From positions 4,459 to 68,458 of the forward strand of contig JAMOOQ010000051.1 in the NCBI GenBank assembly GCA_027100635.1: a DNA stretch of 64,000 nt, given 5' to 3'. This DNA is from Campylobacteraceae bacterium (GTDB lineage: Bacteria; Campylobacterota; Campylobacteria; Campylobacterales; Sulfurovaceae). Both the position numbers and the translations under genes were made by a program. The notes under the pieces were generated by a model that searched no databases, was not told where the DNA came from, and worked only from the letters and a program-made list of their open reading frames with translations. The stretch's first letter is position 1. Each line of letters opens with the position of its first letter. Below, piece after piece: positions 1 to 18,054 of this stretch.

Positions 1-900
<900 letters not shown>

Positions 901-1025
901 TTATAAATTCAATGGCACTACCTTATTAAGTGTATATCAACTGTAATCATTACTTAGACTCTTAACAATGTTAAGTTTTTCTCAATACTGAGAGAATTAA
1001 GAACATATTGTGTTTTTAATTCTCT

Positions 1026-1142
1026 TAGTGGTGGGGCTAGAGAGAGGGAAATACCCAGATCCATTCCGAACCTGGAAGTCAAGCCTCTCATCGCCGATAA
1101 TACTGCACCTGTCTGGTGTGGAAATGTAGGTCGCTGCCACTT
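1026..1142 (+). rRNA. rrf: 5S rRNA
   Basis: About 117 nt, roughly 125 nt after the 23S end. Contains the 5S-typical 'ccattccgaacctggaagtcaagc' and 'gccgataatactg' segments. Terminal helix 'agtgg...ccact'. Confidence 0.9.
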
Positions 1143-1330
1143 TGAGATTAACTTTTTATTTATCTTAAAACTTCAACAAACAAAATTAAAATTATTTTAC
1201 TTTACTTTATTATTACTAAATTTATTTTTTGTAGATTTATTAATATTAAATCAATATCTAAGCTAAGACTTGTTAATATAAAAAATTCTCCTTTATTCTA
1301 CAACACCTTAGCCAAAAAAACCCTAAATTA

Positions 1331-1885
1331 TCAAGCCACATCTCCATGAATAATCGAAAATGCAGATACTCTCCAAATTGCCTTATTAATTAAAATATTA
1401 TCCACTTTTTCTCCATATAATTTTAATACTTCTCTAGTATATTTCTCTGCTCTGAAGAGAGATTTAATATCATTTACACTATATTTTAAAAACTTGCTAT
1501 TTGTATGCAAACTATAGCTAATATTATTCATAAACATAGATAAATTCGCAAAATTATGCACTCTTCTTTTCTTAATATTCATAAAATCTTCTAGTCCAAA
1601 ATTCCAAATTATCATAATTTATCTCATCTCCATAAATTCTTTTTCTTCCTCTACTTTTTTGCTCTCCAGTGAATTTTAAATAGAGTTTTGAATTCTTCTG
1701 GTTTACTAATTGTACTTTCATATGCCAGTAAAATTATATTTTTGCCAAGTTTTGGTTTGATTATTTAATAATTCATGCTTAACCAATTCAGTTTCTTGTC
1801 AAAAAATCTCTCTATAGTTTTATAGCTAATGGCATCATTCCATTTTGATATTCCTAACATTGTGACCCTTCCAGTCATTGCTAGG
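1331..1885 (-). mobile_element. Degraded DDE transposase remnant (IS4-superfamily-like), internally deleted with stops
   Basis: Minus-strand translation gives 'MTGRVTMLGISKWNDAISYKTIERFFDKKLNW...IILLAYESTISKPEE'. After stops it gives 'IWNFGLEDFMNIKKRRVHNFANLSMFMNNIS'. From memory these resemble the N-terminal 'GRVTMLG.SRW..GGSYRT.QRFF' and C-terminal 'WGLEDFMNVK' blocks of a DDE transposase family. The catalytic core is missing. Confidence 0.5.
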
Positions 1886-1893
1886 ATTGGTCT

Positions 1894-2298
1894 CTAAGCT
1901 CCCCACTCTTTTACACCCTCTTCAAAATATATCATAACCTCTGTCACAAATTCATTTACACAAATCATACCAGCACAGTTATCTCTAAAAATCTCTCTAT
2001 TAGATAGGTATATTCTTAAAAAATAATCTATCATTTCAGGTTTTGTCATAGCTACCTCAAAATATATAGCTACAATCGCTCTAGTCTTCTCTTTTGTTGA
2101 TATATCTTTTTCATTAATTCTTTGTAACTCTTTGCCTAAATATGCAGATATAAATTTTATAATCTCTTCTGCTAAAATATCTTTAGATTTAAAGTAGTTA
2201 TACATATTCCCTACACTCATTTTAACTGAGATAGCAATATCTGGTATTGTAGTACTATAAAACCCCTTTGAAGCAAAAAGTTCTAAAGCACCTTGCAT
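1894..2298 (-). pseudogene. TetR-family regulator, C-terminally truncated (134 aa)
   Basis: Complete TetR helix-turn-helix 'ALELFASKGFYSTTIPDIAISVKMSVGNMYNYFKSKD'. The ORF stops where the transposase remnant begins. TetR proteins are usually about 190-200 aa. An in-frame TAA lies 6 codons upstream of the ATG. Confidence 0.55.
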
Positions 2299-2397
2299 TA
2301 TCTGCTCTTTTCTTTTTTACTTCTTATCTTCTCTTTTTGTTGACTATTGTATACTCCTTGATGGTAATTATACATCAAAAATCTTGATAATCAACCT

Positions 2398-2739
2398 CTA
2401 TACCATTTCAAGTTGCATAAGATAGATATCTTCTCCATCAATCACATCTAACTCCATAGCATCACAGTTTGGACAATTAAAAATCCCCATCTCTATTTCT
2501 GAAGTTATTTTACATTTTAAACATTTTATAGTAATTGGTTGTATATTGATTATAAACTCTGCATTTTTACATATAGATACCTCTTTGAAAGTATCAAATG
2601 CCACCTCTAAAAGATGAGGTTCAACACCACTCATTACACCAATTTTGACTACAACTTTTGTAATCTCCGTTGAGTTATTAACCCTTGCGTTCTCTTCACA
2701 ACTCTCTATTAATGATTGGACTATACTATATTCGTGCAT
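2398..2739 (-). CDS. hypA: Hydrogenase nickel-insertion protein HypA
   Basis: N-terminus 'MHEYSIVQSL', two CxxC pairs ('CLKC', 'CPNC'), 113 aa, located in the hyp cluster. Confidence 0.9.
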   Translation of the reverse strand: MHEYSIVQSLIESCEENARVNNSTEITKVVVKIGVMSGVEPHLLEVAFDTFKEVSICKNAEFIINIQPITIKCLKCKITSEIEMGIFNCPNCDAMELDVIDGEDIYLMQLEMV

Positions 2740-2748
2740 TTTGAATAC

Positions 2749-4392
2749 CTATTCATTTTTTACTTTATTATATACTTTTAATCTTGTTGGTGTCTTTGTT
2801 GGGCATATCTTCCAGACAAACTCTTCTCTTAGCTTATGAAAAGCTGAACTATCCTCCCAAAATTCTGGATACATTATTTTTATCTCTTCCTCTTTTAGTG
2901 CCTCTATTTTATCTCTATTTTCTTCTAAAAAATCCTGCTTATCCCAAATAAAATCATCATCAAAGCTACTCTTGGCAAATTGGTGTAACTCTTCATAATA
3001 GTTATTATGAGCAAAAACCTCATCAACCATTTTAATCTTTTTGGCATACTCTACTGAAATTGGCAAACACTCATTAAGTAATCTTTGAGCCTCTTTTTTA
3101 CCTACTCTTTTTGGCAGTATATATGTATGATACTCACTTCCACTAAGTCCTAAAGTTTTGTAGTGAGGATTTAGCACACCCCCATCTCTTGCTACTACAA
3201 AATCACATGCTAATCCCAAAAAGACTCCACCTGCCCCACCATTTTTAGCAAATGAGGCAATAGTGATAATCTCATCAGAGAATATAATAGATTTAATAAG
3301 GTCATTTATAGCATTGATATTTGCCCAACCATCTTCACCCTGTTTTTTACTATCTTCTAGGATATTTAAATGTATTCCATTAGAAAAAAAGTCATACCCA
3401 CCCATCAAAATTAATACTTTACATCTACTATTTAGATACTCAATAGCATATTTAAGTCTTATTGCTTGTGCTGTGCTAATTGCCCCATTGTGAAAATTAA
3501 ATTCAAGATAGGCAATATTATCTTTTATCTCTACAGCTGTTTCATAAAAAGTGTTATAGCTTTTATCAAACAGAAGAGATAACCTATCCTCTTTAGTCCC
3601 TTTTATCTTCTCTTTTAGTAGATAAGTAGCAGGAAGTTTAAATCCTCCCACCTCTTTTAGATGAGTAATCCATATAGCTCCATCAATGGTTGCCAAACAG
3701 ATAGCCCCATCTCTTTTTGCCAATATCTCTTTTGGCTCTCCTTTAAATTTATCCTCTTTCCAAGCACCATATAGATAACACTCAACCCCTAAAACATTAT
3801 CCAAAACCCCCTCAACCGAATCACTAGCATATATTTTTTTAATTATTTCATCTGTAATATCTTTTTGCCAATTAATAACTCTCATCTTTTGAGTAAATGG
3901 TTTATGGATAGGGTTTAATATTTGAGGGGTTGATATATTTTTCTCTATATTATAAAAAAGCTCATTGAGTGTAGAGATAGCTACTCTAATCATCTCTTGC
4001 CGATAGATAGAAGCCTTATAACTCTCTCGCATTTTAAAATTAGCACTAGCATAAATATCTCCACCATCATAAAGCCGATTTGCCTTTAACCAAACTCCAC
4101 CCCACTCTCTGACCTTATTAACAATAGCATAATCTAGGCTATAAGCTCCTCTATCTCCTATGGGTGCAGGATGAAATACAAAGGTTGGATAGTTTTCATA
4201 TATCTCTTTGGGGATGTAGCTTTTTAGGAATGGGCAGAGGATTAGTTGAGGGTTAAAAGCTTTTATCTCTTTTATAATTTGGGTTTTGTTTATAGCATAG
4301 ACTATATCTATTTTGTAGCCTCTATCCTTTAGAGTCGTGTGGACTGCTTGGGATAGGGAGTTGTAGGTTGTGATTAGGAGGGTTAGGGTCAT
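2749..4392 (-). CDS. hypX: HypX/HoxX-type hydrogenase maturation factor (formyltransferase-like N-domain plus crotonase-like C-domain)
   Basis: 547 aa. The N-terminal 'LILCPFLKSYIPKEIY...FVFHPAPIGDRGAYSLDYAI' resembles the HoxX transferase domain. The C-terminal 'GGAGGVFLGLACDFVVA' is an enoyl-CoA hydratase-like oxyanion motif. Lies between hypE and hypA. Confidence 0.8.
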   Translation of the reverse strand: MTLTLLITTYNSLSQAVHTTLKDRGYKIDIVYAINKTQIIKEIKAFNPQLILCPFLKSYIPKEIYENYPTFVFHPAPIGDRGAYSLDYAIVNKVREWGGVWLKANRLYDGGDIYASANFKMRESYKASIYRQEMIRVAISTLNELFYNIEKNISTPQILNPIHKPFTQKMRVINWQKDITDEIIKKIYASDSVEGVLDNVLGVECYLYGAWKEDKFKGEPKEILAKRDGAICLATIDGAIWITHLKEVGGFKLPATYLLKEKIKGTKEDRLSLLFDKSYNTFYETAVEIKDNIAYLEFNFHNGAISTAQAIRLKYAIEYLNSRCKVLILMGGYDFFSNGIHLNILEDSKKQGEDGWANINAINDLIKSIIFSDEIITIASFAKNGGAGGVFLGLACDFVVARDGGVLNPHYKTLGLSGSEYHTYILPKRVGKKEAQRLLNECLPISVEYAKKIKMVDEVFAHNNYYEELHQFAKSSFDDDFIWDKQDFLEENRDKIEALKEEEIKIMYPEFWEDSSAFHKLREEFVWKICPTKTPTRLKVYNKVKNE

Positions 4393-4411
4393 TTTATATC
4401 CTTATTATGTT

Positions 4412-4512
4412 GTAGGGTGCAATTCCTATTGCACCATTTTATGTTATATACACAAAAAATTATATTTTCTATAAAATCTAATCTAATTGGTGCGATAGCA
4501 ATCGCACCCTAC
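4412..4512. repeat. Pair of inverted GC-rich hairpin units between hypE and hypX
   Basis: 'gtagggtgcaattcctattgcacc' (4412-4435) and 'ggtgcgatagcaatcgcaccctac' (4489-4512) are reverse complements of each other at 21 of 24 positions. Each is itself an 8-bp stem hairpin. The right unit contains the hypE TAG stop. Confidence 0.7.
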
Positions 4513-5504
4513 TAACAAATCCTAGGCAACAACTCCCCAGTAGGTAAATCCAAAAACCTCTTAGTCCCCCAAGAACTCTTTAATATAACTTTACCTTTAT
4601 ACTCCATTGATACTCTTCCAATTATTGATGAGGTGTTATGGGTCTCTCTTAAAATTTCTAATGCTTTAACCTCATCACTCTTAGGAACTGCTAAAATAAA
4701 TGAACCCTCATTAGCTAAATCCATAGCCTCAAAGCCTAACATTTCGCAAATCCCTCTTACACTATCTTGAATTGGAATTTGCTCCTCTTCTACCTCTATA
4801 CATACATTAGATGCATTAGCCCACTCATTTAAAACAGCACTAACTCCACCTCTTGTAGCATCACGCATAGCGATTATCTCTATACCACTATCTATTAGAG
4901 CTTTAACTTGTGGATATAGAGATGTACAATCTGTTTTTAAATCACTTTCTAATTCAATCCCCTCTCTTGCTGAAAATATTGTAGCTCCGTGGCTTCCAAT
5001 ATCTCGGTTTACCAAGATACTCATATCATCTTTTAAATTACTAGCACTAATTCCACTATACTCTATCTCTCCAATGCCTGTGGTGTTTATAAAAAGCTTA
5101 TCAACTGCACCTTTTGGCACTACTTTAGTATCTCCACTGACAACTATAGCCCCATTAATCTCTAGCTCTTTTTTCATACTTCTTACTATTTTTTCAAGCT
5201 CACGAGTAGAAAAGCCCTCTTCTATGATAACACTACAAGTTAAATATTTTGGTTTTGCTCCCATCATAGCTAAATCATTACAAGTGCCACAGATAGAGAG
5301 TTTACCAATATCTCCACCACTAAAAAAGAGAGGGCTTACTGTAAAGCTATCTGTTGAAAAAGCTAGTTTCCCATCTTCTATTACTGCACTATCTTCACTC
5401 TTTTGTAAAATATCATTTTTAAAGTGTTTGTAGAATATCTTAGATATTAACTCATTATTCTCTTGTCCACCATTTCCGTGGGCTAGGGTTATTGTTTTAT
5501 TCAT
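4512..5504 (-). CDS. hypE: Hydrogenase maturation carbamoyl dehydratase HypE
   Basis: 'ITLAHGNGG' N-terminus, AIR-synthase-like fold motifs, and the diagnostic C-terminal 'PRIC'. Confidence 0.95.
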   Translation of the reverse strand: MNKTITLAHGNGGQENNELISKIFYKHFKNDILQKSEDSAVIEDGKLAFSTDSFTVSPLFFSGGDIGKLSICGTCNDLAMMGAKPKYLTCSVIIEEGFSTRELEKIVRSMKKELEINGAIVVSGDTKVVPKGAVDKLFINTTGIGEIEYSGISASNLKDDMSILVNRDIGSHGATIFSAREGIELESDLKTDCTSLYPQVKALIDSGIEIIAMRDATRGGVSAVLNEWANASNVCIEVEEEQIPIQDSVRGICEMLGFEAMDLANEGSFILAVPKSDEVKALEILRETHNTSSIIGRVSMEYKGKVILKSSWGTKRFLDLPTGELLPRIC

Positions 5505-7252
5505 TGTTGCTCCTCATATAAAATTCCAAAATCTTTCAAAGAATTACGTCCTAATCCATAATATCCAGAAGCATAATTCTTTGCCTTATTTTCAATATAT
5601 TTCCAAAACTCATCACTTTTCATTATCTTTTGAAGTTCTAATAATTCTTCTTTTGAAGAATAAGCACACATACCATTATAAAAATATAAATTTTCATCTT
5701 CACTATAAAAAGTTTTAAATCCTTTTCTAACTAATTGAGGGAAAAAAAGTTTCTCTTTTCTCTTTTCTAAAGATTGACTACGACCAAAAGCATACCAGTC
5801 AGGATATTTCCCTTTTCCTTTATCTCTTAATGCTAATATTTCTTTTTTAGATAATAGATATTTATAAGCTTTTGGATATTTTTTTTTAAATATTTCTTGT
5901 TCTATAAAAACTGCTTGATTAATTTTATTATGTCTATATGGGAATATAATTTTTTCTACTAAACTTTCTAAATTATCATATTTAGCTAATTTATTACTAT
6001 TAATAATATTTTTACAAATACTTTTTTCTATGGCTGTATTTTCATCAATATAATAATATTTTCTATCAGGTTTATTTATTGGTTTAAAAATATATATACT
6101 ATTTTTAAGTGTAGCTATACCACTCTTCGTATCATATATTTCTCCAAAAAGTTTTCCTCTAGCTTCTATTTCTTGAATAAAGTCATTATCTTTTAAACTC
6201 CAACCATTATGAGAATTTAAATTAGCATAATTTTCTTTATTAAAATATATTTGAGTAAGAGGCTCTAAATTATTTTGTTTACTCATAGCATATAATATAT
6301 TTTTACTCTCTATATTCTCAATAAAACAGAGACAAGTATAGGTCAAACGCGATGTAAATATTTGTTCATCTCCAAAATCTATAATCGTTAATTTAACTTT
6401 TTTTTCTTCAAAATATTTACGAATAGCCCGACCATTAACACTATGAATAAAAGTATTCACCGTAATAAAGCCCAAAATTCCTTTAGATTTTAAAAGTTCA
6501 AGTCCTATCTGAAAAAAAGGTATATATAAATCAGGATGTCCTGTTTTGCAAGTAGTCCAATTTTTCATTAATACTTTTGTCTTATCATCCATATTACGAG
6601 AACAGACATAAGGAGGATTACCCAAAATCATATCAAATTCAATCTCTCCCCAGTCAAACTTTAGTGTATCTCCTACATATATATTAAATTCAAAATTCTC
6701 TTTATCTTCACCCTCTGTAATGGCTAAGAGTGATAAAAGTATTTTAGTTCGATCCACACTATAAGATTGAATATCCACACCATAAATATTCTCTTTAAAT
6801 ATTTTTTTATACGATTTACCCGTTTTAGATTTTAACTCTCTAGTTGCATCAATTAAAAATCCACCACAACCACAGGCTATATCTGCAACTTTAATATTAA
6901 TTATAGATTTTTTATTCAATAACTCAAATGATTGCTTAGTAATATACTCTCTTATATTTTTAGGTGTATAAATAGCACCATTGATAAGTTTATCAGATGG
7001 GGAGATAACAAATTCAAAGAGTTCTAGGAGTTCTTCAAAACCCAAAAAATAGTTATTTATTCTTAATATTTCTATAAATTCTAAGAGGCTTACATATTCA
7101 AGTGTATCTTTTTGAATAATTAAACTTTTTATTTTTTTATTTTTAATATTAGTAATATTTTTTTCTAATAAGAAGGCAGATACAATTAATCTATTAATAT
7201 CATATTCATTAGTTCCATACTCTTTTAAAAAATTTAAGATTTCTTTGTTCAA
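5501..7252 (-). CDS. Gamma-class N6-adenine DNA methyltransferase (Eco57I/TaqI-like), no adjacent nuclease
   Basis: SAM motif I 'VADIACGCGGFL' and catalytic motif IV 'GNPPY', followed by a long C-terminal region consistent with a TaqI-like target-recognition domain. TTG start. The stop overlaps the hypE start (ATGA). Confidence 0.85.
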   Translation of the reverse strand: MNKEILNFLKEYGTNEYDINRLIVSAFLLEKNITNIKNKKIKSLIIQKDTLEYVSLLEFIEILRINNYFLGFEELLELFEFVISPSDKLINGAIYTPKNIREYITKQSFELLNKKSIINIKVADIACGCGGFLIDATRELKSKTGKSYKKIFKENIYGVDIQSYSVDRTKILLSLLAITEGEDKENFEFNIYVGDTLKFDWGEIEFDMILGNPPYVCSRNMDDKTKVLMKNWTTCKTGHPDLYIPFFQIGLELLKSKGILGFITVNTFIHSVNGRAIRKYFEEKKVKLTIIDFGDEQIFTSRLTYTCLCFIENIESKNILYAMSKQNNLEPLTQIYFNKENYANLNSHNGWSLKDNDFIQEIEARGKLFGEIYDTKSGIATLKNSIYIFKPINKPDRKYYYIDENTAIEKSICKNIINSNKLAKYDNLESLVEKIIFPYRHNKINQAVFIEQEIFKKKYPKAYKYLLSKKEILALRDKGKGKYPDWYAFGRSQSLEKRKEKLFFPQLVRKGFKTFYSEDENLYFYNGMCAYSSKEELLELQKIMKSDEFWKYIENKAKNYASGYYGLGRNSLKDFGILYEEQQ

Positions 7253-7255
7253 CTT

Positions 7256-7990
7256 TTATCTTTTAATGAGTTGAGGATAAATTTCTTGTGGATTCCAAGG
7301 AGAATTTATTTTTCTATCAAAGTGATTTACTACAGATTGATAATAAGGTAATATAAAATATTCTTGATACTTTTTAATTATTTTAGGATAATTTATATCT
7401 TCTGCTAATAATTCTCTCCACTCTTTTGGAAAAAAATTTGATAACAAAAAATCTAAGCCCAAAATAAATTCCATTGGATGATGTGCAATTCGTGGAGCGT
7501 CAAAAAATAAAGTTTGTCCAATATCAATATCTACTTTTTCAATAAATCTACCTCCAAATTGAAAATGATAAATGGGATGAACTTCTTCAGGAGGATTACC
7601 TCCTTCTATATGTCTATCAAAATGTAGAGAATACCTTAATGCTCTATCTTCAATACATTTACCAATAGCATATATATTAAACTCTAAAGAATTTAAAGGG
7701 TCTTTATTTAATAATAAGTTATCAATATTTCCCTTTACTTTTGTTGCAAATATAATCTTTAAAGTTTTTACTTTTGTTTGAACAAAGTGTTTGGGTATAT
7801 TTTCTTTTACAAAAGTTATTTCTAAAGATTGAGATTCATAGTCTAATTGATTATTATTTTTTAATCCATCAATCACATTATCAAATGCTTGTGTTTTAAT
7901 ATTACTTTTAAATTTTTTATGAATAGATTGTTTTAAAAATTGTAAATCTTTAATCATTCCACGAATAATCTTCTGTTCCTCTTTTGACAT
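7256..7990 (-). CDS. Hypothetical 244-aa protein of the hyp-embedded cassette, His-rich conserved-looking patch
   Basis: Uninterrupted ORF translationally coupled to both neighbours (TAATG overlap upstream, 3-nt gap downstream). No family recognised. Notable patch 'HFDRHIEGGNPPEEVHPIYHFQFGG...APRIAHHPMEF'. Confidence 0.6.
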   Translation of the reverse strand: MSKEEQKIIRGMIKDLQFLKQSIHKKFKSNIKTQAFDNVIDGLKNNNQLDYESQSLEITFVKENIPKHFVQTKVKTLKIIFATKVKGNIDNLLLNKDPLNSLEFNIYAIGKCIEDRALRYSLHFDRHIEGGNPPEEVHPIYHFQFGGRFIEKVDIDIGQTLFFDAPRIAHHPMEFILGLDFLLSNFFPKEWRELLAEDINYPKIIKKYQEYFILPYYQSVVNHFDRKINSPWNPQEIYPQLIKR

Positions 7991-9075
7991 TATAATTCCA
8001 TATCTTCAATAGCATTAAATAATTCTTCCTTATCTATAGAATGAATTTTTATATTTTTCTCTTCTAGCTTTCCTTCTAAAAAAGCATCTAATGAAAAATA
8101 CTCATACTCTTGCCATGATTTAGGTTCTTTAGTAGAATAAACTCTAAATCCTTCCATAACATCTAAAGGTCTATTATAAGCTTTACAAACAGTGGAATAA
8201 AAAAAGCTATGATTATGTTTTATTGGTTCAGAATATTTTATATTTTCACTTTGAAGCATCTCATTAAATTTATTTATTTTCTCTTTTGCATTTAATTGAG
8301 CTAAATAATGACCTGTAATTTTATTGAATATACTATCAATATCATTTATCCACCATCTATCCCAAGCTTCACAAAATACCCCTTTATATTTTGCATTTTC
8401 AAATAATTCTTTAATTTTATTCCAATCTTCTATATTAGTATTTAATTTATCTACTCCTAACCTTGAAGCTAAAATATCTTCATTAATTAAAACACCTGTT
8501 ATAAATATTAATTCTTTTAAAATAAATTGTGCATATTCATGAATAGGTATCTTAGATTTTTCTTCTAAAAATCTTGATAAAATTTCATTTTGTAAATTAG
8601 ATAATTTATCTACTCCCATTAACTTTGTTATATTATCTTGATTTTTTTCTATTTTAATATACCCTTTTGCTAAAGCAGATAACTCCTTAGAAGCATTTTT
8701 ATGAGTATTAACTTTTCTTATATAACTATCAAATAAATTATGACTACTTAAATCAGTAGCATATACTTGTTGTAACTTTTCATCAGTAGAGAAAAGAATA
8801 ATGGGTAAATCTTTTGTTAATTCTCCTTTTGTAACTAAAGTTCTAATATGTTGAGCAAACTCTGTTGCTGTAAAATCAGAACTATTTGGAGTATCATCAA
8901 GTCTCAAATCAAGTAAAATACCATCATAATTTACTAAATTATTTTTAATATATTCTGTAGTAAATTCAGAAACATGCTTATATTCTACGCTAACATTTTC
9001 ACTAGATAATCCATCAGCCAAAGCTTCTGATGTATATTTGCCTTCATCATCTATATATAAATATTTATATTGCAT
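7990..9075 (-). CDS. Receiver (REC) domain protein with an uncharacterised ~230-aa C-terminal domain
   Basis: REC signature residues read in order: 'YLYIDDE' (acidic pair), 'GILLDLRL' (phospho-acceptor Asp), 'PIILFST' (Ser/Thr), 'FDSYIRK' (Lys). No AAA+ or HTH motifs seen downstream. I prefer the ATG at 9075 ('MQYKYLYIDDE') over the ORF-track start at 9108. Confidence 0.7.
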   Translation of the reverse strand: MQYKYLYIDDEGKYTSEALADGLSSENVSVEYKHVSEFTTEYIKNNLVNYDGILLDLRLDDTPNSSDFTATEFAQHIRTLVTKGELTKDLPIILFSTDEKLQQVYATDLSSHNLFDSYIRKVNTHKNASKELSALAKGYIKIEKNQDNITKLMGVDKLSNLQNEILSRFLEEKSKIPIHEYAQFILKELIFITGVLINEDILASRLGVDKLNTNIEDWNKIKELFENAKYKGVFCEAWDRWWINDIDSIFNKITGHYLAQLNAKEKINKFNEMLQSENIKYSEPIKHNHSFFYSTVCKAYNRPLDVMEGFRVYSTKEPKSWQEYEYFSLDAFLEGKLEEKNIKIHSIDKEELFNAIEDMEL

Positions 9076-11314
9076 TTTTATATCCTTCTTTATCCCAAGG
9101 TAATTCAATTCTAATAGTAGTATTATACCCTTTTGTAGGTTCTTTTACAAATATTAGCCCTCCATAGCTAGTAATAATATCTCTTACTATTTTAAGCCCT
9201 AATCCTGTACCTGTCATCTCTTCATGGTGTTTTGCAATCTTTCCAACAGGAACACTCGTGGTATAAAAAGCATTAAAAATTTTATCTCTTTTTTCAATAG
9301 GAATACCATCACCATTATCTGAAAACTCTAAATAAACCCATTTATTATGTTTTTTACCACACTCTATAAAAATTTTACCATTTACATTTGCTCTATTAAT
9401 AGCTTTTCTTGAATTGGTATAAAAGTTAAATAAGATAGAAGCCCATTCTGATTTATGCATAGCAATTGTATATAAATTATACCCATTAAAAATAGGTTCA
9501 ACAAACTCTATTTGTTGTCTTAATATATCGGCATCTAGTGTTCTTTTTAGTGAATAAACTACGGTTCTAAGCTCTATAGGTTTTAATTCTCTTTGTACAT
9601 TTTCAGAAAAAGATTCATCAAAATAGGAAATATAAGTGGATAACCCATCTAAATTATTTTTAACGCGTTTATTTACTTTTAAAACATTATCCAAAGAATC
9701 ACTATTAGAAATATTTCTAATATCATGTTGTAAAGCTCCTTGGTATTGCTTTATCTCATGTATAAATTCTCCAATAGTTAAACCTAATCCAGCTAAGACT
9801 CTTAAAAGATTCATCTCTTTTATTAGTTCTATTTTTTTTATTTTTTGTTCTTCTTTAGCTTCATGAAGAGTCTCTTTTAACTCTTTTATTTTATCTTTTA
9901 CTTGTTCTAAATCTTCTTCATCTTTTATATTATCCAGCCCCTCAACAACATTATTAATAATTTCTTCAGGCTCTTTTTTCCACTCTTCTTGATTTGTTTT
10001 TTGCTTCACACCTCTAATAGAAGCAAGTTTTAAAATAGCATCAATTAAAACTTTATATCCAAATTCACTCAATTCTGTAAAGGCTTTATTTTTAAGGAGA
10101 CCCTCTCTACTTGAAGTTTCTTCAAATTGCTCTCTAAAATCATTATTGACCTCTATAATTCCAAAAAAGTTATTATTACCATGAACAGGTAAAATAGTTC
10201 TTTTTCTAATAGATGCATCTAGCCCAAGCCAATCATCTTGAGGTTCACCATAAGGCAATACACGAAAGCCATTTCGGTATAATCTAATACCACCTTGCTC
10301 TTTTGCTTTTTCTCGTATAGTACTTTCACTCTGTTTAGGAATTAATCCAGAATTATAAATAAAATAATAAGCTTTTAATGCAACATTTTTTAACTCTTTA
10401 AATGGCTCATTAGGATTTAATAACACTCTATTTTCTTTATAGTCTAATTTTTTACTTTTAATAGATAAATACATAAATCCATCATTATCTACAAAACCAT
10501 TAATCTCTGCTAAAGCATGTTCAAAAAACATTGTCTCTTCATTGGCAATAGTAAATTTTTTACCATTATTTATTTCAATACACTTCAACTTAAATCCTAA
10601 ATCATTAGGAGCTTTAGAATTTTTTTTGGTTTTAGAAATTGGAAAGGGTTGAATTATCTCTGATGCATAACGATATACTCTTTTTATCTGTGCTTCACTC
10701 CAAGAGTCTCTTAGATTTTCTATAATTAAAGTTGTACCCTCATCTTTTTGCTTCTCTATATATTCAATCTTATTAGTGATAAAAGATAACTCCTTATCTC
10801 CCATAAAATCATCCCAATAAAAAACTACTTTAAGTGCCTCTGTGGATTTAAGAGTTTGAGTAATAATAGTTAATTTCTTACCAAGTCTTTGAGTAGAAAA
10901 TCGTCCTATCCCTTTTTTACCTGCTCTTTTTCTATCATATCGTGGAGAACGGGGAAAATGTAGTTTATCGCTAGAAGAGAGTCTCATAAATCCATTGATT
11001 AACTGCTCTCTAGTCATTCCTAAACCATTATCTTTTATCTCTAAAACTCCACCAACTTTATATGACTCCTTAAAAGTAAGAATGACTTTAGTAGCATCAG
11101 CATCATAAGCATTTTTAACAAGTTCAGATACGGCTGTTTCATGCCTTGCTACAAGCTCTTTACCCAAACGATCAATAATCCCTGCATCAATAGAGAAGCG
11201 AACGCTATTTTTATCAAATTTTGCAAGTTCATTTGATAAAGATAAAATTTTTGAGTAGTTGCTAGGGTCATTTTTTAGAATATTCTGTAATTCTTCTTTT
11301 ATTTTTTCTTGCAA
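9065..11314 (-). CDS. Dual-GHKL protein: N-terminal MORC/Hsp90/MutL-like ATPase fused to a C-terminal histidine kinase (DHp plus HATPase_c)
   Basis: N-terminal module: 'ELVKNAYDADA' (N-box), 'IKDNGLGMT' (G1), 'GKKGIGRFS' (G2). A coiled-coil linker follows. C-terminal module: H-box 'GEFIHEIKQY', N-box 'ILFNFYTNSRKAI', G1 'FSDNGDGIP', F 'IFNAFYTT', G2 'GTGLGLKIV'. No TM segment seen. TTG start with AGGA 7 nt upstream. Confidence 0.8.
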   Translation of the reverse strand: MQEKIKEELQNILKNDPSNYSKILSLSNELAKFDKNSVRFSIDAGIIDRLGKELVARHETAVSELVKNAYDADATKVILTFKESYKVGGVLEIKDNGLGMTREQLINGFMRLSSSDKLHFPRSPRYDRKRAGKKGIGRFSTQRLGKKLTIITQTLKSTEALKVVFYWDDFMGDKELSFITNKIEYIEKQKDEGTTLIIENLRDSWSEAQIKRVYRYASEIIQPFPISKTKKNSKAPNDLGFKLKCIEINNGKKFTIANEETMFFEHALAEINGFVDNDGFMYLSIKSKKLDYKENRVLLNPNEPFKELKNVALKAYYFIYNSGLIPKQSESTIREKAKEQGGIRLYRNGFRVLPYGEPQDDWLGLDASIRKRTILPVHGNNNFFGIIEVNNDFREQFEETSSREGLLKNKAFTELSEFGYKVLIDAILKLASIRGVKQKTNQEEWKKEPEEIINNVVEGLDNIKDEEDLEQVKDKIKELKETLHEAKEEQKIKKIELIKEMNLLRVLAGLGLTIGEFIHEIKQYQGALQHDIRNISNSDSLDNVLKVNKRVKNNLDGLSTYISYFDESFSENVQRELKPIELRTVVYSLKRTLDADILRQQIEFVEPIFNGYNLYTIAMHKSEWASILFNFYTNSRKAINRANVNGKIFIECGKKHNKWVYLEFSDNGDGIPIEKRDKIFNAFYTTSVPVGKIAKHHEEMTGTGLGLKIVRDIITSYGGLIFVKEPTKGYNTTIRIELPWDKEGYKNAI

Positions 11315-11364
11315 TAGTTATCCTAATATATTTTTTATATTATAACTAAAAGAAACACATTTCA

Positions 11365-12507
11365 TTATATCAAATTCCCATACTTATAATATGCACTACA
11401 CGCTCCCTCACTGCTTACCATACAACTACCAATGGGGTTTATTGGGGTACAGGCTGTTCCAAATATTGTGCATTCTGGAGGTTTTGCCATTCCTCTTAGA
11501 ATATCTCCACAGATACATAGTTTATGGTCTTCAATTTGGGATATTGGTAGAATATCTTTATATATAACTTCAGCATTATATTTATTGAATTCATCTTTTA
11601 ATCTTAAACCACTATCTGGTACATTTCCTAATCCCCTCCATCTAAAGAGGCTCACTTTTTCAAAATATTTATTTATTATTCTTTGTGATTTTAGGTTGCC
11701 ATCATAATCTACAACTCTTTTGTATTGTATCTCCAGTTCACAACGATTTTGGATAAATTGCTTTACTATCATACTGATACCCTCCATCACATCAACAGGC
11801 TCAAATCCACTTACTACAACAGGACGGTTATATTTTCTTGGAAACTCTTCATATATTTTACTCCCTGCAATTACGCTAACATGGCTAGGTCCTAGAAAAG
11901 CATCTATTTTATTGTTGTAGCTGTCTATATGAATATCTCTACTATCAATTAATTCTCTCATAACTTCTGGTACAGTTACATGATTTATATGAAAAAGAAT
12001 ATTTGGAATTTGTAGTTTTATGACCTGCTCAATTAATACAGCACTCATTGGTGTGGTTGTTTCAAACCCAATAGCAAAGAATATAATTTTTTTATTAGGA
12101 TTATCTTTGGCTATTTTTATACAATCTAGTGGAGAGTATACAAACCTTACATCAGCACCTTCTGCCCTTGCTTGTTGAAGGCTTCCTCTACTTGAGGGGA
12201 CTTTTATCATATCTCCTAGAGTCACTAAAATTACATCGCTTTGCATAGCTAAAATATATGCGTGGTCTATCCTCTCTTTTGGCATAATACATACAGGACA
12301 ACCAGGACCGTGTATAAAGTTTATATTATTTGGTAGTAGTTGGAGCAAACCATATTTCATAATAGTATGTGTATGTCCTCCACACACCTCCATAATATTT
12401 ATATCTCTATTTAGCCCTTTAGCATCATTGGAGATAACTTTAGCATAGGCTTTAATTGTATCTGCATCTCTAAAATTATCATATAGATTTTTTAGTTCAA
12501 GGTTCAT
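11365..12507 (-). CDS. hypD: Hydrogenase maturation protein HypD
   Basis: 'CGGHTH' and 'GPGCPVC' motifs, 380 aa. Confidence 0.95.
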   Translation of the reverse strand: MNLELKNLYDNFRDADTIKAYAKVISNDAKGLNRDINIMEVCGGHTHTIMKYGLLQLLPNNINFIHGPGCPVCIMPKERIDHAYILAMQSDVILVTLGDMIKVPSSRGSLQQARAEGADVRFVYSPLDCIKIAKDNPNKKIIFFAIGFETTTPMSAVLIEQVIKLQIPNILFHINHVTVPEVMRELIDSRDIHIDSYNNKIDAFLGPSHVSVIAGSKIYEEFPRKYNRPVVVSGFEPVDVMEGISMIVKQFIQNRCELEIQYKRVVDYDGNLKSQRIINKYFEKVSLFRWRGLGNVPDSGLRLKDEFNKYNAEVIYKDILPISQIEDHKLCICGDILRGMAKPPECTIFGTACTPINPIGSCMVSSEGACSAYYKYGNLI

Positions 12508-14291: not shown

Positions 14292-16466
14292 TTATAGCTC
14301 TCTAGTTGCACTAATTATCTGTCCAAAGGCAATTCCACCATCGTTGATAGGAATTTTATTTGGAATGATAGCTGTTGGGATTTTATTTAATACAAGCTCT
14401 AATAAAATTCTATTTTGGAACACTCCACCACTTAGGACTAATGGTAGATTATATCTCTTATATATAACATATATTATCTCCACTAGAGTGTTAAAAAATT
14501 TTGATATGGCTATCTCTATATTAGACTCTTGAACTATCTCTTTGATAAGAGGTTCTATGTTTATAATATTCTCTTGTATCTGGAATGGATACCAATTAGT
14601 GATATTTTTATTATAAAATTCTTCCATTCTCATACCACTCTCTCCTTCAAAACTTATCACTTGGCATATTCCAACAATAGAAGCAATAGCATCAAATATC
14701 CGTCCTACTGATGAGCTAAAAGGAGCATTTAATCCTTTTTTCCACATTAGATATTGCGTTTTTATCTCACTCTCACTGAATGCTCTTGTTGTGGGGTTAT
14801 CCAACTCTAATGTCTTGTCCTCCCCTAAACTATCAAATAATAGACTCAATGCCACTCTCTTTGGCTCTTTAATTGCTCTTGCTCCACCAAGTAGTTTGAA
14901 GTATTTAAAATGTGCTACTCTTTTATACTCATTATAATTTGAAATTAAAAACTCGCCACCCCAAAGTTTTCCATCATCTCCTAATCCTGTTCCATCAAAA
15001 GATACGCCTAAAACTTCTTTAGATAAATTTTTTTCTGCCATTACTCCTATAATGTGAGCATAATGGTGTTGTACCTCTTTTACTCTTATATTTAAACTTT
15101 TTGCATACTTTGTACTCTCATAGTTTGGATGTATATCACAAACAACTTCATTAGGTTCAAACTGATATATCCTTTTGAGATTATTTATACTATCTTTAAA
15201 ATATTCTATTGATTTAATTGCATCTAAATCTCCAATATGAGGAGATATTATAGCTTTATCCTTAAATGCAATAGCAATAGTATTTTTCTGGTTTGCTCCA
15301 ACTGCTAATATTTTTCCTTTTAATTTAAATGGTAACTTTATTGATACTGGTGTATATCCTCTAGCTCTTCGTATAAATATAGTTTGATTTTTTATAACCA
15401 TAACAACACTATCATCACATCCATTAACTATATCTCTATCGTGGTCAATTAGATAGTCATATATATTAGAAAGCTTCTCTATATCTTTAGTTTTAGTTGC
15501 TATTGGCTCATCTGTAATATTTGCACTTGTAGCAACTATTGGACTATTTAGCTCTTTTAAAATAAGAATATGTAGAGGGGTATATGCTATAAATATTCCT
15601 ATTCTTAAGCTATTTGGAGAGATGGCACTATCTATATTTTTAGAGTTTAAAAGAACAATCGGTCTCTCTTTAGATGTTAAAAGCTCCTCCTCTTTTAAAT
15701 TAATATAGGCCATCTCATGAGCCATATTTATATCCTTTACCATTATAGCAAATGGCTTAGTGGCTCTACCTTTTTTCTCTCTTAATCGATTAATTGCAAT
15801 ATGGTTAGTTGCATCACAGACAAAATGGTATCCACCCACTCCCTTAATTGCTAATATTTTTCCATCATCTATAAATTTCACAATATCTTTGATTTTATCC
15901 TTTAGCTGTACACCACATTTGAAACATCCTATTGGTTGTGCATGGTATCTTCTATCTAGTGGATTATTATACTCTTTTTTACAATCTTGGCACATACTAA
16001 ACTCTCTCATTGCCGTATTTTCTCTATCATAGGGTAAATCATAGATAATAGAGTATCTCACCCCACAATTTGTGCAGTTAATAAATGGATAATTATAACG
16101 CCTATTATTTGGATTAAAAAGCTCCTCTTCACACTCTTTACATATAGATATATCAGGAGGGATATTTACACTGATACTATCTCTATTTTGACTTCTAATA
16201 ATTTTAAAGTTATTAAATTCTATAGAACTAACTTCTTTAATTGAGATAGAGTTGATAGATGCTAATGGAGGTAGTTCATTTTTTATACTTGATATAAAGA
16301 GCTTAAGTATTTTAGGAGTAGAGTTAATAAATATTTCAACTCCATTTGAGCCATTAGATACAGTTCCATTAAGATTGTATCTTATAGCTAGAGTATATAT
16401 AAACGGACGAAATCCAACACCTTGGACTGTACCGTCTATTTCTATATTATAAGATAGGCAATTCAT
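14292..16466 (-). CDS. hypF: Carbamoyltransferase HypF
   Basis: Acylphosphatase-like N-terminus 'GTVQGVGFRPF', two zinc-finger pairs ('CKECEEE...CTNCG', 'CQDC...CFKCG'), then YrdC-like and Kae1-like regions. 724 aa. Confidence 0.95.
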   Translation of the reverse strand: MNCLSYNIEIDGTVQGVGFRPFIYTLAIRYNLNGTVSNGSNGVEIFINSTPKILKLFISSIKNELPPLASINSISIKEVSSIEFNNFKIIRSQNRDSISVNIPPDISICKECEEELFNPNNRRYNYPFINCTNCGVRYSIIYDLPYDRENTAMREFSMCQDCKKEYNNPLDRRYHAQPIGCFKCGVQLKDKIKDIVKFIDDGKILAIKGVGGYHFVCDATNHIAINRLREKKGRATKPFAIMVKDINMAHEMAYINLKEEELLTSKERPIVLLNSKNIDSAISPNSLRIGIFIAYTPLHILILKELNSPIVATSANITDEPIATKTKDIEKLSNIYDYLIDHDRDIVNGCDDSVVMVIKNQTIFIRRARGYTPVSIKLPFKLKGKILAVGANQKNTIAIAFKDKAIISPHIGDLDAIKSIEYFKDSINNLKRIYQFEPNEVVCDIHPNYESTKYAKSLNIRVKEVQHHYAHIIGVMAEKNLSKEVLGVSFDGTGLGDDGKLWGGEFLISNYNEYKRVAHFKYFKLLGGARAIKEPKRVALSLLFDSLGEDKTLELDNPTTRAFSESEIKTQYLMWKKGLNAPFSSSVGRIFDAIASIVGICQVISFEGESGMRMEEFYNKNITNWYPFQIQENIINIEPLIKEIVQESNIEIAISKFFNTLVEIIYVIYKRYNLPLVLSGGVFQNRILLELVLNKIPTAIIPNKIPINDGGIAFGQIISATREL

Positions 16467-18054
16467 TATTAAAATATATATTACTATTTATTGATAATTC
16501 ATCGGAAATCTTTTGAAACACTCTCCTATTTGAGAGTAGCGACCCATAAACAGCCACAGCATCAACGCCCATACTCTCTTTTAGTTCATCTATCTCATTT
16601 GTAATAAACTCTAAAAAGCTCTCTATTACACCATAAGATAGAGCTAAATCATCTACCACCCCTGCCAGCTTAAAGCTCATCGCAGTTCTAATTACCATAA
16701 GTGGATTTAAAAATACTTTTCCATCTATATTTTTAAGTTTATAATCTATTCTCGGCCCTCTATCTCCTAAAAAGCTCATTGCATTATTTTCCAGTATTTT
16801 AGCTCCATTGATAGGCTTGTCTGTAAAATCTAAGATAATAGCCACTAAACCCCATAATTGATAGATACTAAATTGACTGCCATTAAATGCTATTTGTGAA
16901 ACTTTTTTATAAAACTCTGGAAATTTAGCTTTATAGTTGGATATTAACCTTTTACCCTCTTCATCTGAAGAGTCTATTTGAGTGAATATATCCTCTATGG
17001 AGTTGAAGTTAAAATCAAATGATAGATACTCAATAAGCCCAAATTTTTCACCATCAATTATAATATTAGAGTAATCTTTACTCAAATTTAGACCTGCTAT
17101 ATTTTTATATTTTTCAGATAAATTATGTTCATTCTTGATAGCATTAAATCCATCTACTCTTGAATTTATTTTCTCTATCTTAGATGCTTTTACTCCTCTA
17201 TCTCCACTTATAATGAGTATATGTTTAGATGAGGCAACAACCTCGATAGGTTCTAAAATATCTTTTGGTTCAACTAAAATATACTCTCTATCTACTTTAA
17301 TCTTATCTTTTGTTATAGCTAACACATCTATACCAACAGAGTGAAGCTCTTTCATAATTAGATATAAGAGTGCATCATCTGCTAATCTAAATCTTATTAA
17401 CTCTCTATCTATCTCTTCGTAGTCCATTATAAATTTTATCTTCTTTTTTAGAGTTATAGCTGGTTTCTCAAAAGAGGCTAGAGCATTTAATTCATACTCC
17501 TCTAAAGTAGCATACTTCTCTAAAGTAGCAAGGTCATAAGCTAAGATGTCAAAATCTATATTATTAAAAATATTAGATGGGATAGCCAAAGAGTACTCTC
17601 CATAAAATGTATTTAATCTTATAACTTTACCATCTTTTATATCTTTAATAATACTAATAATTTCATCTTTGTAACTTCTATTCTCTCCATCTATATTATA
17701 TCCACAAGCATTACATTTAGTAAAAATATTGTAACTTTGTTCAATCTTAGATATACATTTAGGGCATGGTGGAGTTGCTATCTCTCTATCTTCTAAAATA
17801 TACTTCTCTTTTGGCATATCTTCAATAATTGATGCTTTTGTTCCATAAAAGAATATTGAATGTGGTAAAACCCTTGAAAAACTTGTTGCAAAATTTTCTA
17901 ATTGTGTTGGAGTATCTGCTTCAACAAATAGATTAAGTTCAAATCCATTTCTATCTATATTTCCATTTAAATTGGACTCTTTTATCTCATTTAAAAAAAT
18001 CTTCTCATAAACTAAAGATGATGAGCGATAATCTATTTTATACTCCAATATCAT
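16447..18054 (-). CDS. HydE-like hydrogenase accessory protein (epsilonproteobacterial type), function unknown
   Basis: 535-aa ORF between the hydrogenase protease and hypF, overlapping both. Has a zinc-ribbon-like 'CPKC...CNACG'. The call rests mostly on position. Confidence 0.45.
   Translation of the reverse strand: MILEYKIDYRSSSLVYEKIFLNEIKESNLNGNIDRNGFELNLFVEADTPTQLENFATSFSRVLPHSIFFYGTKASIIEDMPKEKYILEDREIATPPCPKCISKIEQSYNIFTKCNACGYNIDGENRSYKDEIISIIKDIKDGKVIRLNTFYGEYSLAIPSNIFNNIDFDILAYDLATLEKYATLEEYELNALASFEKPAITLKKKIKFIMDYEEIDRELIRFRLADDALLYLIMKELHSVGIDVLAITKDKIKVDREYILVEPKDILEPIEVVASSKHILIISGDRGVKASKIEKINSRVDGFNAIKNEHNLSEKYKNIAGLNLSKDYSNIIIDGEKFGLIEYLSFDFNFNSIEDIFTQIDSSDEEGKRLISNYKAKFPEFYKKVSQIAFNGSQFSIYQLWGLVAIILDFTDKPINGAKILENNAMSFLGDRGPRIDYKLKNIDGKVFLNPLMVIRTAMSFKLAGVVDDLALSYGVIESFLEFITNEIDELKESMGVDAVAVYGSLLSNRRVFQKISDELSINSNIYFNNELPIL

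Follow-up and report, generated by a model that had tools for sequence, protein, structure and literature searches.

A four-gene methylase, histidine kinase and receiver cassette inserted between hypD and hypE: a candidate restriction-modification-like immune module

Histidine kinases fused to a GHKL ATPase module of the paraMORC type, paired with a divergent receiver protein and lying near restriction-modification (R-M) genes, have already been described by computational work (PMC2292703, PMC8011034). In this line, Bellieny-Rabelo, Pretorius & Moleleki (2021; PMC8011034), whose work builds on the paraMORC study of Iyer, Abhiman & Aravind (2008; PMC2292703), reported kinases of HATPase_c_3, HEF_HK and HATPase_c architecture paired with Response_reg_2 proteins near type II R-M genes, where the partners were mostly C5 methylases, Vsr and HNH. 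An unexplained histidine kinase has also been noticed in Acinetobacter baumannii beside Ssp loci without SspE (PMC7464106, PMC12421847). In the 64,000-nucleotide (nt) stretch of a Campylobacteraceae bacterium analysed here (Sulfurovaceae; assembly GCA_027100635.1, contig JAMOOQ010000051.1, positions 4,459 to 68,458; hereafter the window), a six-frame listing of open reading frames places four tightly packed co-directional genes between hypD and hypE (5501-11314, minus strand), encoding a kinase of 749 amino acids (aa), a receiver protein, a 244-aa orphan protein and a DNA methylase. The reading that we favour, with a confidence just above even, is that this cassette is a horizontally acquired four-gene R-M-like immune module in which a His-Asp phosphorelay links sensing to attack. 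An earlier note on this DNA had called it a candidate undescribed defence system, which holds for the present family but not for the sister architectures: R-M associated with GHKL/paraMORC and with two-component-like proteins is already known, and what is un-named here is this four-gene module, with its two families without recognisable fold.

The layout of the locus is as follows:

4512-5504, minus strand: hypE, downstream flank of the insertion (Pfam AIRS and AIRS_C)
5501-5504, minus strand: right junction, methylase stop TGA overlapping the hypE ATG (ATGA)
5501-7252, minus strand: methylase gene, 583 aa; N6-adenine DNA methyltransferase, gamma-class, M.Eco57I type, with a C-terminal target-recognition region
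7256-7990, minus strand: orphan gene, 244 aa; candidate metal-dependent effector with an invariant His/Asp cluster
7990-9075, minus strand: receiver gene, 361 aa; REC at about residues 1-125 and a conserved C-terminal domain of about 235 aa
9065-11314, minus strand: kinase gene, 749 aa, TTG start; soluble histidine kinase with paraMORC-type GHKL, middle region, coiled coil, DHp and C-terminal histidine-kinase catalytic domain
11315-11364, minus strand: left junction spacer, 50 nt after the hypD stop
11365-12507, minus strand: hypD, upstream flank of the insertion (PF01924, E 1e-145)

These open reading frames bear out the earlier description of four genes splitting hypD from hypE. The receiver gene starts at the ATG at 9075 according to public database gene calls, its longest open reading frame extending to 9108. 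The extreme packing had also been read correctly for the 11-nt overlap of kinase and receiver genes, the 1-nt overlap of receiver and orphan genes, the 3-nt gap between orphan and methylase genes and the ATGA at the hypE boundary; the spacer between hypD and the kinase gene, given as 47 nt, is actually 50 nt.

The conserved hypD|hypE junction has been interrupted here by insertion of the cassette. In a HypD-based scan with one genome per species (80 Campylobacterota loci, 78-88% HypD identity), none of the 80 loci carries any of the four genes at this place, and hypD and hypE lie 0-207 nt apart in 52 of the 72 loci holding both, in keeping with the normal adjacency of the two genes that had been assumed from other hyp operons. 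The hypD stop overlaps the hypE start (...ATA TGA CAAAA...) in 20 of these 52, and a hypE 69-90% identical to that of the window directly follows hypD in relatives. Computed over all 5.8-kb windows, the compositional contrast suspected from hand counts is real: the G+C of the cassette is 0.263 against a mean of 0.292 (standard deviation 0.015), within the lowest 0.4%, and G+C at third codon positions is 0.10-0.16 in its genes against 0.15-0.26 in the hyp genes. It is the absence of the cassette from all 80 relatives, the empty sites and the low G+C, taken together, that identify it as an insertion. By comparison with 26 empty sites, the left spacer holds an ATGAA relic of the ancestral overlap between hypD stop and hypE start, along with the hexamer TATAAT and, ahead of the TTG at which the kinase gene starts, the ribosome-binding site AGGA, and the ATGA between methylase and hypE recreates the stop/start coupling seen for hypD-hypE in empty sites. 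Both junctions have AATGAA in common (5-6 nt), with which target duplication, microhomology and chance are all compatible; a shared 6-nt stretch in AT-rich DNA is weak evidence for an insertion mechanism. No tRNA gene, integrase or real terminal repeat was found at the cassette, nor any convincing repeat at its flanks, which agrees with the first reading of the locus. No terminator was found inside it either, its promoter-like and terminator-like counts being those of shuffled sequence. Because the cassette is co-directional, lacks a terminator and ends in the ATGA overlap, hypE-hypX-hypA presumably stay expressed downstream of it.

The same junction is a recurrent insertion hotspot: in Sulfurimonas, Sulfurovum and Arcobacter relatives it takes up defence and toxin-antitoxin genes. 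Other lower-G+C DNA of 1.8-9.7 kb occupies it in 15 of them (loci L007, L022, L040, L044, L045, L047, L050, L051, L052, L055, L060, L066, L074, L075 and L076), starting after hypD, at about position 11140 in most of these loci. All cargo open reading frames of at least 150 aa are co-directional with hyp, and the opposite strand has only short ones (80-156 aa) within these; no integrase was seen in this cargo. By Pfam, it comprises a Wadjet-like set (DUF3584, DUF7281) with an AAA_21 ATPase, McrC/McrB, AAA_21 with HNH (Septu-like), KAP NTPases and Fic, SNF2 with a DNA ligase, type I HsdR with Mrr-nSTAND3, a fused M.C5/R.HinP1I and Phd/ParE pairs immediately after hypD. With recognised immune and toxin-antitoxin genes as junction cargo in relatives, the cassette occupies a site of that kind. 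Two cargo genes of the Sulfurimonas group, for a CHAD/His_Phos protein and an aldo-keto reductase, look non-defensive. In L040, L045, L050, L052, L055, L060 and L074, CHAD/His_Phos_1 immediately follows hypD, as a single gene of 394 aa or as two pieces of about 226 and 162 aa. Within one Sulfurimonas group it is a semi-conserved occupant of the junction, sometimes with the aldo-keto reductase alongside, and may serve there as a hyp accessory gene particular to the lineage instead of a defence gene.

The domain assignments made from the letters alone were largely upheld by profile and structure searches. In the 749-aa protein, Pfam finds the two GHKL modules as HATPase_c_3 at residues 59-168 and HATPase_c at 626-740. 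The N-terminal module shows E64/N68/D71, D95xGxG and G132xxGxG, and the DHp and catalytic region H519E520, N630/N634, D666xGxG, F680 and G702xGxG; the GHKL motifs, H519-E520 and the N, G1, F and G2 boxes are invariant in 82 family members, and a motif of the middle region, YRNGFRVxPYG (346-355), is nearly invariant. Judged by these motifs, both ATPase modules and the phospho-acceptor are intact. Kinase residues 39-211 align with positions 2-177 of the NCBIfam BbrUII/HgiDII restriction-enzyme model (74 bits against a cut-off of 550), which ties the N-terminus to the paraMORC radiation (PMC2292703). At the other end of the cassette, the methylase matches Pfam Eco57I (7.5e-30) and N6_Mtase (1.2e-19) and is covered end to end by the PADLOC model MTase_II (PDLC03335, 2.6e-92). 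Its motif I, DIACGCG at 124, precedes NPPY at 212, and the enzyme therefore belongs to the gamma class of N6-adenine methyltransferases, as had been proposed.

The REC domain of the receiver, which is not detected by Pfam, was recovered with Foldseek from an AlphaFold model with a predicted local distance difference test score (pLDDT) of 91: the probability to REC structures is 1.0 over the N-terminal ~140 residues only. D9, D10, the phospho-acceptor D56, S96/T97 and K121 are conserved among 45 homologues. The C-terminal domain carries the motifs GVFSDGWxRWW and PLDxxEGF...K-x-WQEY and has no match in Pfam, in a PDB profile search or in Foldseek; against a viral library Foldseek gave matches to REC and none to the C-terminal domain, and PADLOC-DB v2 and PHROGs hold no match for the receiver. 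A PD-(D/E)xK motif made of the invariant D305, E308 and K319 was rejected as unproven, since spacing and predicted strands misfit. The 244-aa protein deserves the name of orphan that it had been given, with no match in Pfam, NCBIfam, PADLOC or PHROGs, no PDB profile match and no Foldseek match to PDB below E 0.3 for its AlphaFold model (pLDDT 84, predicted template modelling score 0.84). In a 36-sequence alignment, H123-x-D125-R-H127, H138-P-x-Y141-H142-F-Q144-x-G146-G147 and P166-R167 are invariant, and together they look like a metal or catalytic site. Two more specific assignments were discarded: a relation to EndoG, suggested by Foldseek rows at E 2-4 and by the likeness of 'FDRH' to the DRGH motif, is not significant, and for a 2-oxoglutarate oxygenase the spacing of HxD...H is too short and there is no match to a double-stranded beta-helix.

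Outside the window, kinase homologues of 60-88% identity occur in Sulfurimonas, Sulfuricurvum, Wolinella, Campylobacter, Malaciobacter, Marithrix (Gammaproteobacteria) and Bacteroidales, and the order kinase, ~360-aa protein, ~245-aa protein and ~600-aa Eco57I-type methylase recurs wherever the context was fetched, with different neighbours. The latter are a resolvase and an rve integrase in Wolinella, unrelated genes in Malaciobacter, HupE/UreJ and MoxR on metagenome contig L005, DUF4365 and an integrase in Mucilaginibacter, relaxase/type IV coupling protein and AbiEi/Eii genes on metagenome contig L087, type I R-M and an integrase in Aliarcobacter butzleri, and a Piwi protein (prokaryotic Argonaute) and a large methylase on a Hymenobacter plasmid. 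In a metagenome scan with the receiver profile (80 further loci, scored with hidden Markov models built for the family), the kinase gene adjoins the receiver gene in 71/71 loci with at least 600 nt upstream, and the 244-aa gene does so in 68/68 with at least 600 nt downstream. Kinase, receiver and 244-aa genes are an inseparable trio. The receiver profile collected 921 cluster representatives at 50% identity, the best 150 all being full length; none of 50,697 phage genome records contains a receiver homologue, and four IMG/VR contigs carry a relative, all four with the full set. The cassette is thus mobile across phyla, widespread and found in defence-rich contexts. That homologues would co-occur elsewhere without being tied to hydrogenase genes had been a prediction, and copies do lie beside integrases, R-M, AbiE, prokaryotic Argonaute and conjugation genes; the window has the only copy inside a hyp operon, the others being outside hyp and hyd genes. 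On L005, whose kinase is 87% identical, a HupE/UreJ nickel-transporter gene (9121-9951) directly precedes the cassette with no hyp operon present; it is the sole other hydrogenase-related neighbour seen, and probably a coincidence.

The trio invariably comes with a DNA-modification module, in most cases an M.Eco57I-like m6A (N6-methyladenine) methylase and in some an SspBCD-like set. Among the 32 loci with room on both sides, hidden Markov models find the Eco57I-type methylase in 24, and Pfam, including M_Eco57I_C, adds 3 in which it lies upstream of the kinase gene (27/32). The five in which it was not found (L142, L150, L159, L160 and L162), together with L137 and L138, encode, immediately upstream of the kinase, a P-loop protein of 1075 aa and a PP-loop (SGGKDS) protein of 369 aa, with a DUF4007 gene ahead of the two where the contig extends further; the SspBCD-like genes of these variant loci lie at about 450-4800. 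PGAP labels plasmid homologues of the 369-aa protein as members of the PAPS-reductase family, and DUF4007, this ATPase and PAPS reductase correspond to SspB, SspC and SspD of phosphorothioate systems and BREX type 4 (PMC12839542). One Hymenobacter plasmid has DUF262 and SIR2 genes, and not the trio, after these three genes. The variant loci imply a putative phosphorothioate-linked version of the kinase-receiver-orphan trio.

Divergence among the components is uneven. Over 29 complete loci, mean identity to the window proteins is 58% for the kinase, 53% for the methylase, 42% for the receiver and 37% for the orphan. Partial Mantel tests on 36 loci, which are not independent samples, gave r 0.38 (p 0.001) for receiver and orphan with the kinase controlled, r 0.51 (p 0.001) for kinase and methylase with the receiver controlled, and r -0.2 (p 1.0) for orphan and methylase with the kinase controlled. 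The kinase-methylase co-variation holds though their genes stand at opposite ends of the cassette. Suggestively, this pattern fits a sensor half of kinase and methylase and an output half of receiver and orphan, and the uncoupling of orphan and methylase argues against a classical pair of restriction endonuclease and methylase matched in specificity.

How does the module compare with the systems described so far? No named defence system matches it in PADLOC-DB v2 of 2023, NCBIfam or the open-access literature, and the view that the gene combination fits none of them stands: PADLOC-DB v2 recognises generic parts only, the methylase (MTase_II) and the N-terminal GHKL of the kinase (a type II restriction endonuclease model), and BREX and MADS models fall far below their cut-offs. 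The closest relatives are the HEF_HK/Response_reg_2 pairs. In both cases a soluble kinase combines HATPase_c_3, a DHp with a His-Glu pair (H519-E520 here) and HATPase_c, the adjacent divergent receiver has an unannotated C-terminal part, the pair is strongly linked to methylases and R-M genes, a paraMORC derivation has been proposed, and knowledge comes from computation only. The window kinase, however, has no match to HEF_HK (PF19191, gathering score 24.1 bits) at E<=10, the best score being 13 bits (E 0.15) for the Wolinella homologue P0103 at the expected position, 523-578. Response_reg_2 (PF19192), a model for which there was no positive control, matched 0/45 alignment members and 0/10 distant homologues at E<=1; receivers of plasmid-borne relatives, tried as such a control, gave weak canonical Response_reg matches only. 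Here an M.Eco57I-like m6A methylase or an SspBCD-like set takes the partner's place, and the obligatory 244-aa third component is not described for the HEF_HK pairs. The receivers of paraMORC-kinase pairs on Campylobacter jejuni pTet and on Enterobacter mori plasmids share the REC part only, not the C-terminal domain. The pTet pair (L171, NZ_AP028364.1), present also in 42 other Campylobacter plasmid records, adjoins a dcm C5-methylase gene and an AAA ATPase gene just after a recombinase and vapD, and is a sister system on clinically relevant conjugative plasmids.

With the paraMORC R-M ATPases and BbrUII/HgiDII the cassette has in common an N-terminal GHKL with intact Bergerat motifs, its place in methylase operons and a patchy, laterally mobile distribution, whereas its GHKL is fused to a full histidine-kinase core instead of a nuclease and output passes through a separate receiver. 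The likeness to Ssp (SspABCD with SspE or SspFGH) lies in the combination of a modification module with an exchangeable restriction module, the trio of the variant loci standing directly after SspB/C/D-like genes, where the restriction partner sits; the window copy, in contrast, uses an m6A methylase, SspB/C/D are absent from the window, and no DUF262/SspE or SspFGH homologue is present. In A. baumannii (L173, NZ_CP064203.1, 2666050-2685132) an SspBCD-like operon is convergent with genes for a 779-aa paraMORC-type kinase and a 646-aa partner; the kinase is paraMORC-related, and the partner, tried as a relative of receiver or orphan, is homologous to neither. The echoes of BREX, MADS and Detocs that had been heard at first are analogies only, the defining components being absent. 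Detocs (DtcA kinase, DtcB HPt, DtcC REC-PNP) also passes phosphate from His to Asp on a receiver-effector, but the cassette has no HPt, PNP effector or membrane/periplasmic sensor, PADLOC gives no match for receiver or orphan and no dtc among the kinase and methylase matches listed, and Detocs lacks a DNA-modification gene. BREX and MADS similarly combine an NPPY N6-adenine methylase and ATPases with no obvious nuclease; here PglX models reach 26-48 bits against cut-offs of 400-900 and PglZ, BrxC and BrxL are missing, while the MADS model MAD2 (NF047738) scores 14.2 bits against 720, the PADLOC mad2 match is limited to the generic methylase core and the other mad genes are absent. Of a classical type II R-M system, the methylase with its catalytic motifs is present, and the orphan offers a His/Asp cluster but no match to a nuclease family or fold. 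Two further leads from the literature were set aside: the text of the DefensePredictor paper on a predicted HATPase+REC system has no detail tying it to this family, and paraMORC3 of the WASA Vibrio paper is an unrelated GHKL-Shedu fusion.

In MORC and MutL relatives, a paraMORC-type GHKL works as an ATPase that clamps DNA. In the immune module that we propose, the methylase would mark host DNA and the N-terminal GHKL of the kinase would report unmarked, foreign DNA, which would lead the C-terminal kinase domain to autophosphorylate H519; the phosphate would then pass to D56 of the receiver, and the activated receiver would switch an effector on, through its own C-terminal domain or with the 244-aa His/Asp-rich protein. 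The effector has to be assumed, because a nuclease or other toxic fold was unrecognised in the four proteins, and would most likely be a metal-dependent nuclease or another toxic enzyme that blocks the invader. All the refuting checks named in the earlier note that can be run in silico came out in favour of its reading, which they support. A more tentative extension, possible but held below an even chance, is that the trio is a portable 'restriction side', in which the MORC-like ATPase-kinase would convert detection of unmarked DNA into a phosphoryl signal to which receiver and partner enzyme respond, reading m6A or phosphorothioate self-marks according to its modification module. The strongest argument for such a restriction side of a modification-dependent system is that the trio stands in the position of the restriction partner for two different DNA marks. 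Several points weigh on the other side. Neither Pfam, NCBIfam, PADLOC and PHROGs nor PDB profiles and Foldseek recognise a nuclease or toxic fold among the four proteins, the divergence of the orphan fails to follow that of the target-recognition region of the methylase, and the stretch LAARLGI in the receiver C-terminal domain resembles a helix-turn-helix (HTH), so that the protein could be a plain transcription factor. Moreover, guilt by association in defence islands has a known false-positive rate, the 2023 release of PADLOC-DB could miss a very recent system name, and no experiments on this family or the described sister families were found in the open-access literature.

Part of this evidence would suit a conventional type II R-M system, which we regard as rather unlikely: the 244-aa protein would be a fast-evolving restriction endonuclease partnering the methylase, and a dedicated two-component pair would control expression or establishment, the receiver C-terminal domain acting as a DNA-binding transcription factor in the role of a C-protein and the kinase reporting a cellular state such as the nucleoside triphosphate pool or DNA damage. 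A regulatory reading of this type was proposed for the sister family by Bellieny-Rabelo et al. (PMC8011034), and the HTH-like segment, the TATAAT in the spacer upstream of the kinase and the 37% mean identity of the orphan, the fastest-evolving component as restriction endonucleases are, all point the same way. Yet a sequence-matched endonuclease makes little sense for a trio that also accompanies an SspBCD-like phosphorothioation module, the divergence of the orphan is coupled to the receiver and not to the target-recognition region, Pfam and Foldseek found no output domain of a known DNA-binding kind, and a 749-aa double-ATPase sensor is heavy machinery for the work of a C-protein. More improbable still is a module that plays no part in immunity and serves an epigenetic or regulatory purpose, in which the phosphorelay tunes an orphan methylase, giving phase-variable or cell-state-dependent methylation, and the 244-aa protein is accessory. 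The failure of Pfam, NCBIfam, PADLOC and Foldseek to recognise a nuclease fits this, and an epigenetic role has been raised as one option for the Acinetobacter Ssp loci that lack SspE and lie beside a related kinase (PMC12421847); the patchy, cross-phylum, mobile distribution in defence islands and plasmids, the Wadjet, McrBC, Septu-like and R-M cargo at the same junction in relatives and the invariant enzyme-like His/Asp cluster of the orphan speak for immunity instead. As for a pair of the HoxJ/HoxA or HupT/HupR type recruited to control hydrogenase maturation, to which the position inside the hyp operon and the HupE/UreJ gene before the cassette of the close relative L005 could lend some credit, the comparative data effectively refute it: 0/80 related hyp operons carry the cassette and hyp linkage is peculiar to the window, the kinase is without PAS, the receiver without sigma-54 AAA+, HTH_8 or Fis-type output domain, and the cassette always travels with a DNA-modification module.

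Three features of the surrounding DNA may be recorded here. In the hypE-hypX spacer, positions 4412-4439 and 4485-4512 form a 28-nt inverted repeat (86% complementary, 45 nt between arms), each arm of which is itself a GC-rich hairpin (GGTGCAAT...ATTGCACC); this may be a REP-like (repetitive extragenic palindromic) element or an attenuator. A 535-aa open reading frame between the hydrogenase structural genes and hypF (16447-18054, minus strand) has no Pfam domain and matches weakly the HypF zinc-finger region (TIGR00143, E 0.005, residues 95-237). At the start of the window stand the 3' end of a 23S rRNA gene (1-906) and a 5S rRNA gene (1027-1142); the hyp/hyd cluster follows this rRNA operon at a distance of only about 1 kb.

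The hypD|hypE hotspot is unusual in being inside a housekeeping operon, and it offers a natural catalogue for finding further systems. The orphan and the receiver C-terminal domain represent large families without recognisable fold, either of which could be a new enzyme class. Eukaryotic MORC-like relatives silence foreign DNA. If the proposed mechanism is right, a prokaryotic function would be provided for MORC-like GHKL modules, and two-component signalling would be joined to restriction-modification, from which it is commonly considered separately. If the trio is in addition a portable restriction side, this would be the first system of the R-M type to place a two-component phosphorelay between telling self from non-self and attacking. 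The trio would also explain DNA-modification modules without a known nuclease, including the SspBCD-like loci, and an analogous unexplained kinase stands next to Ssp in the clinically important A. baumannii global clone 2 (PMC7464106, PMC12421847).

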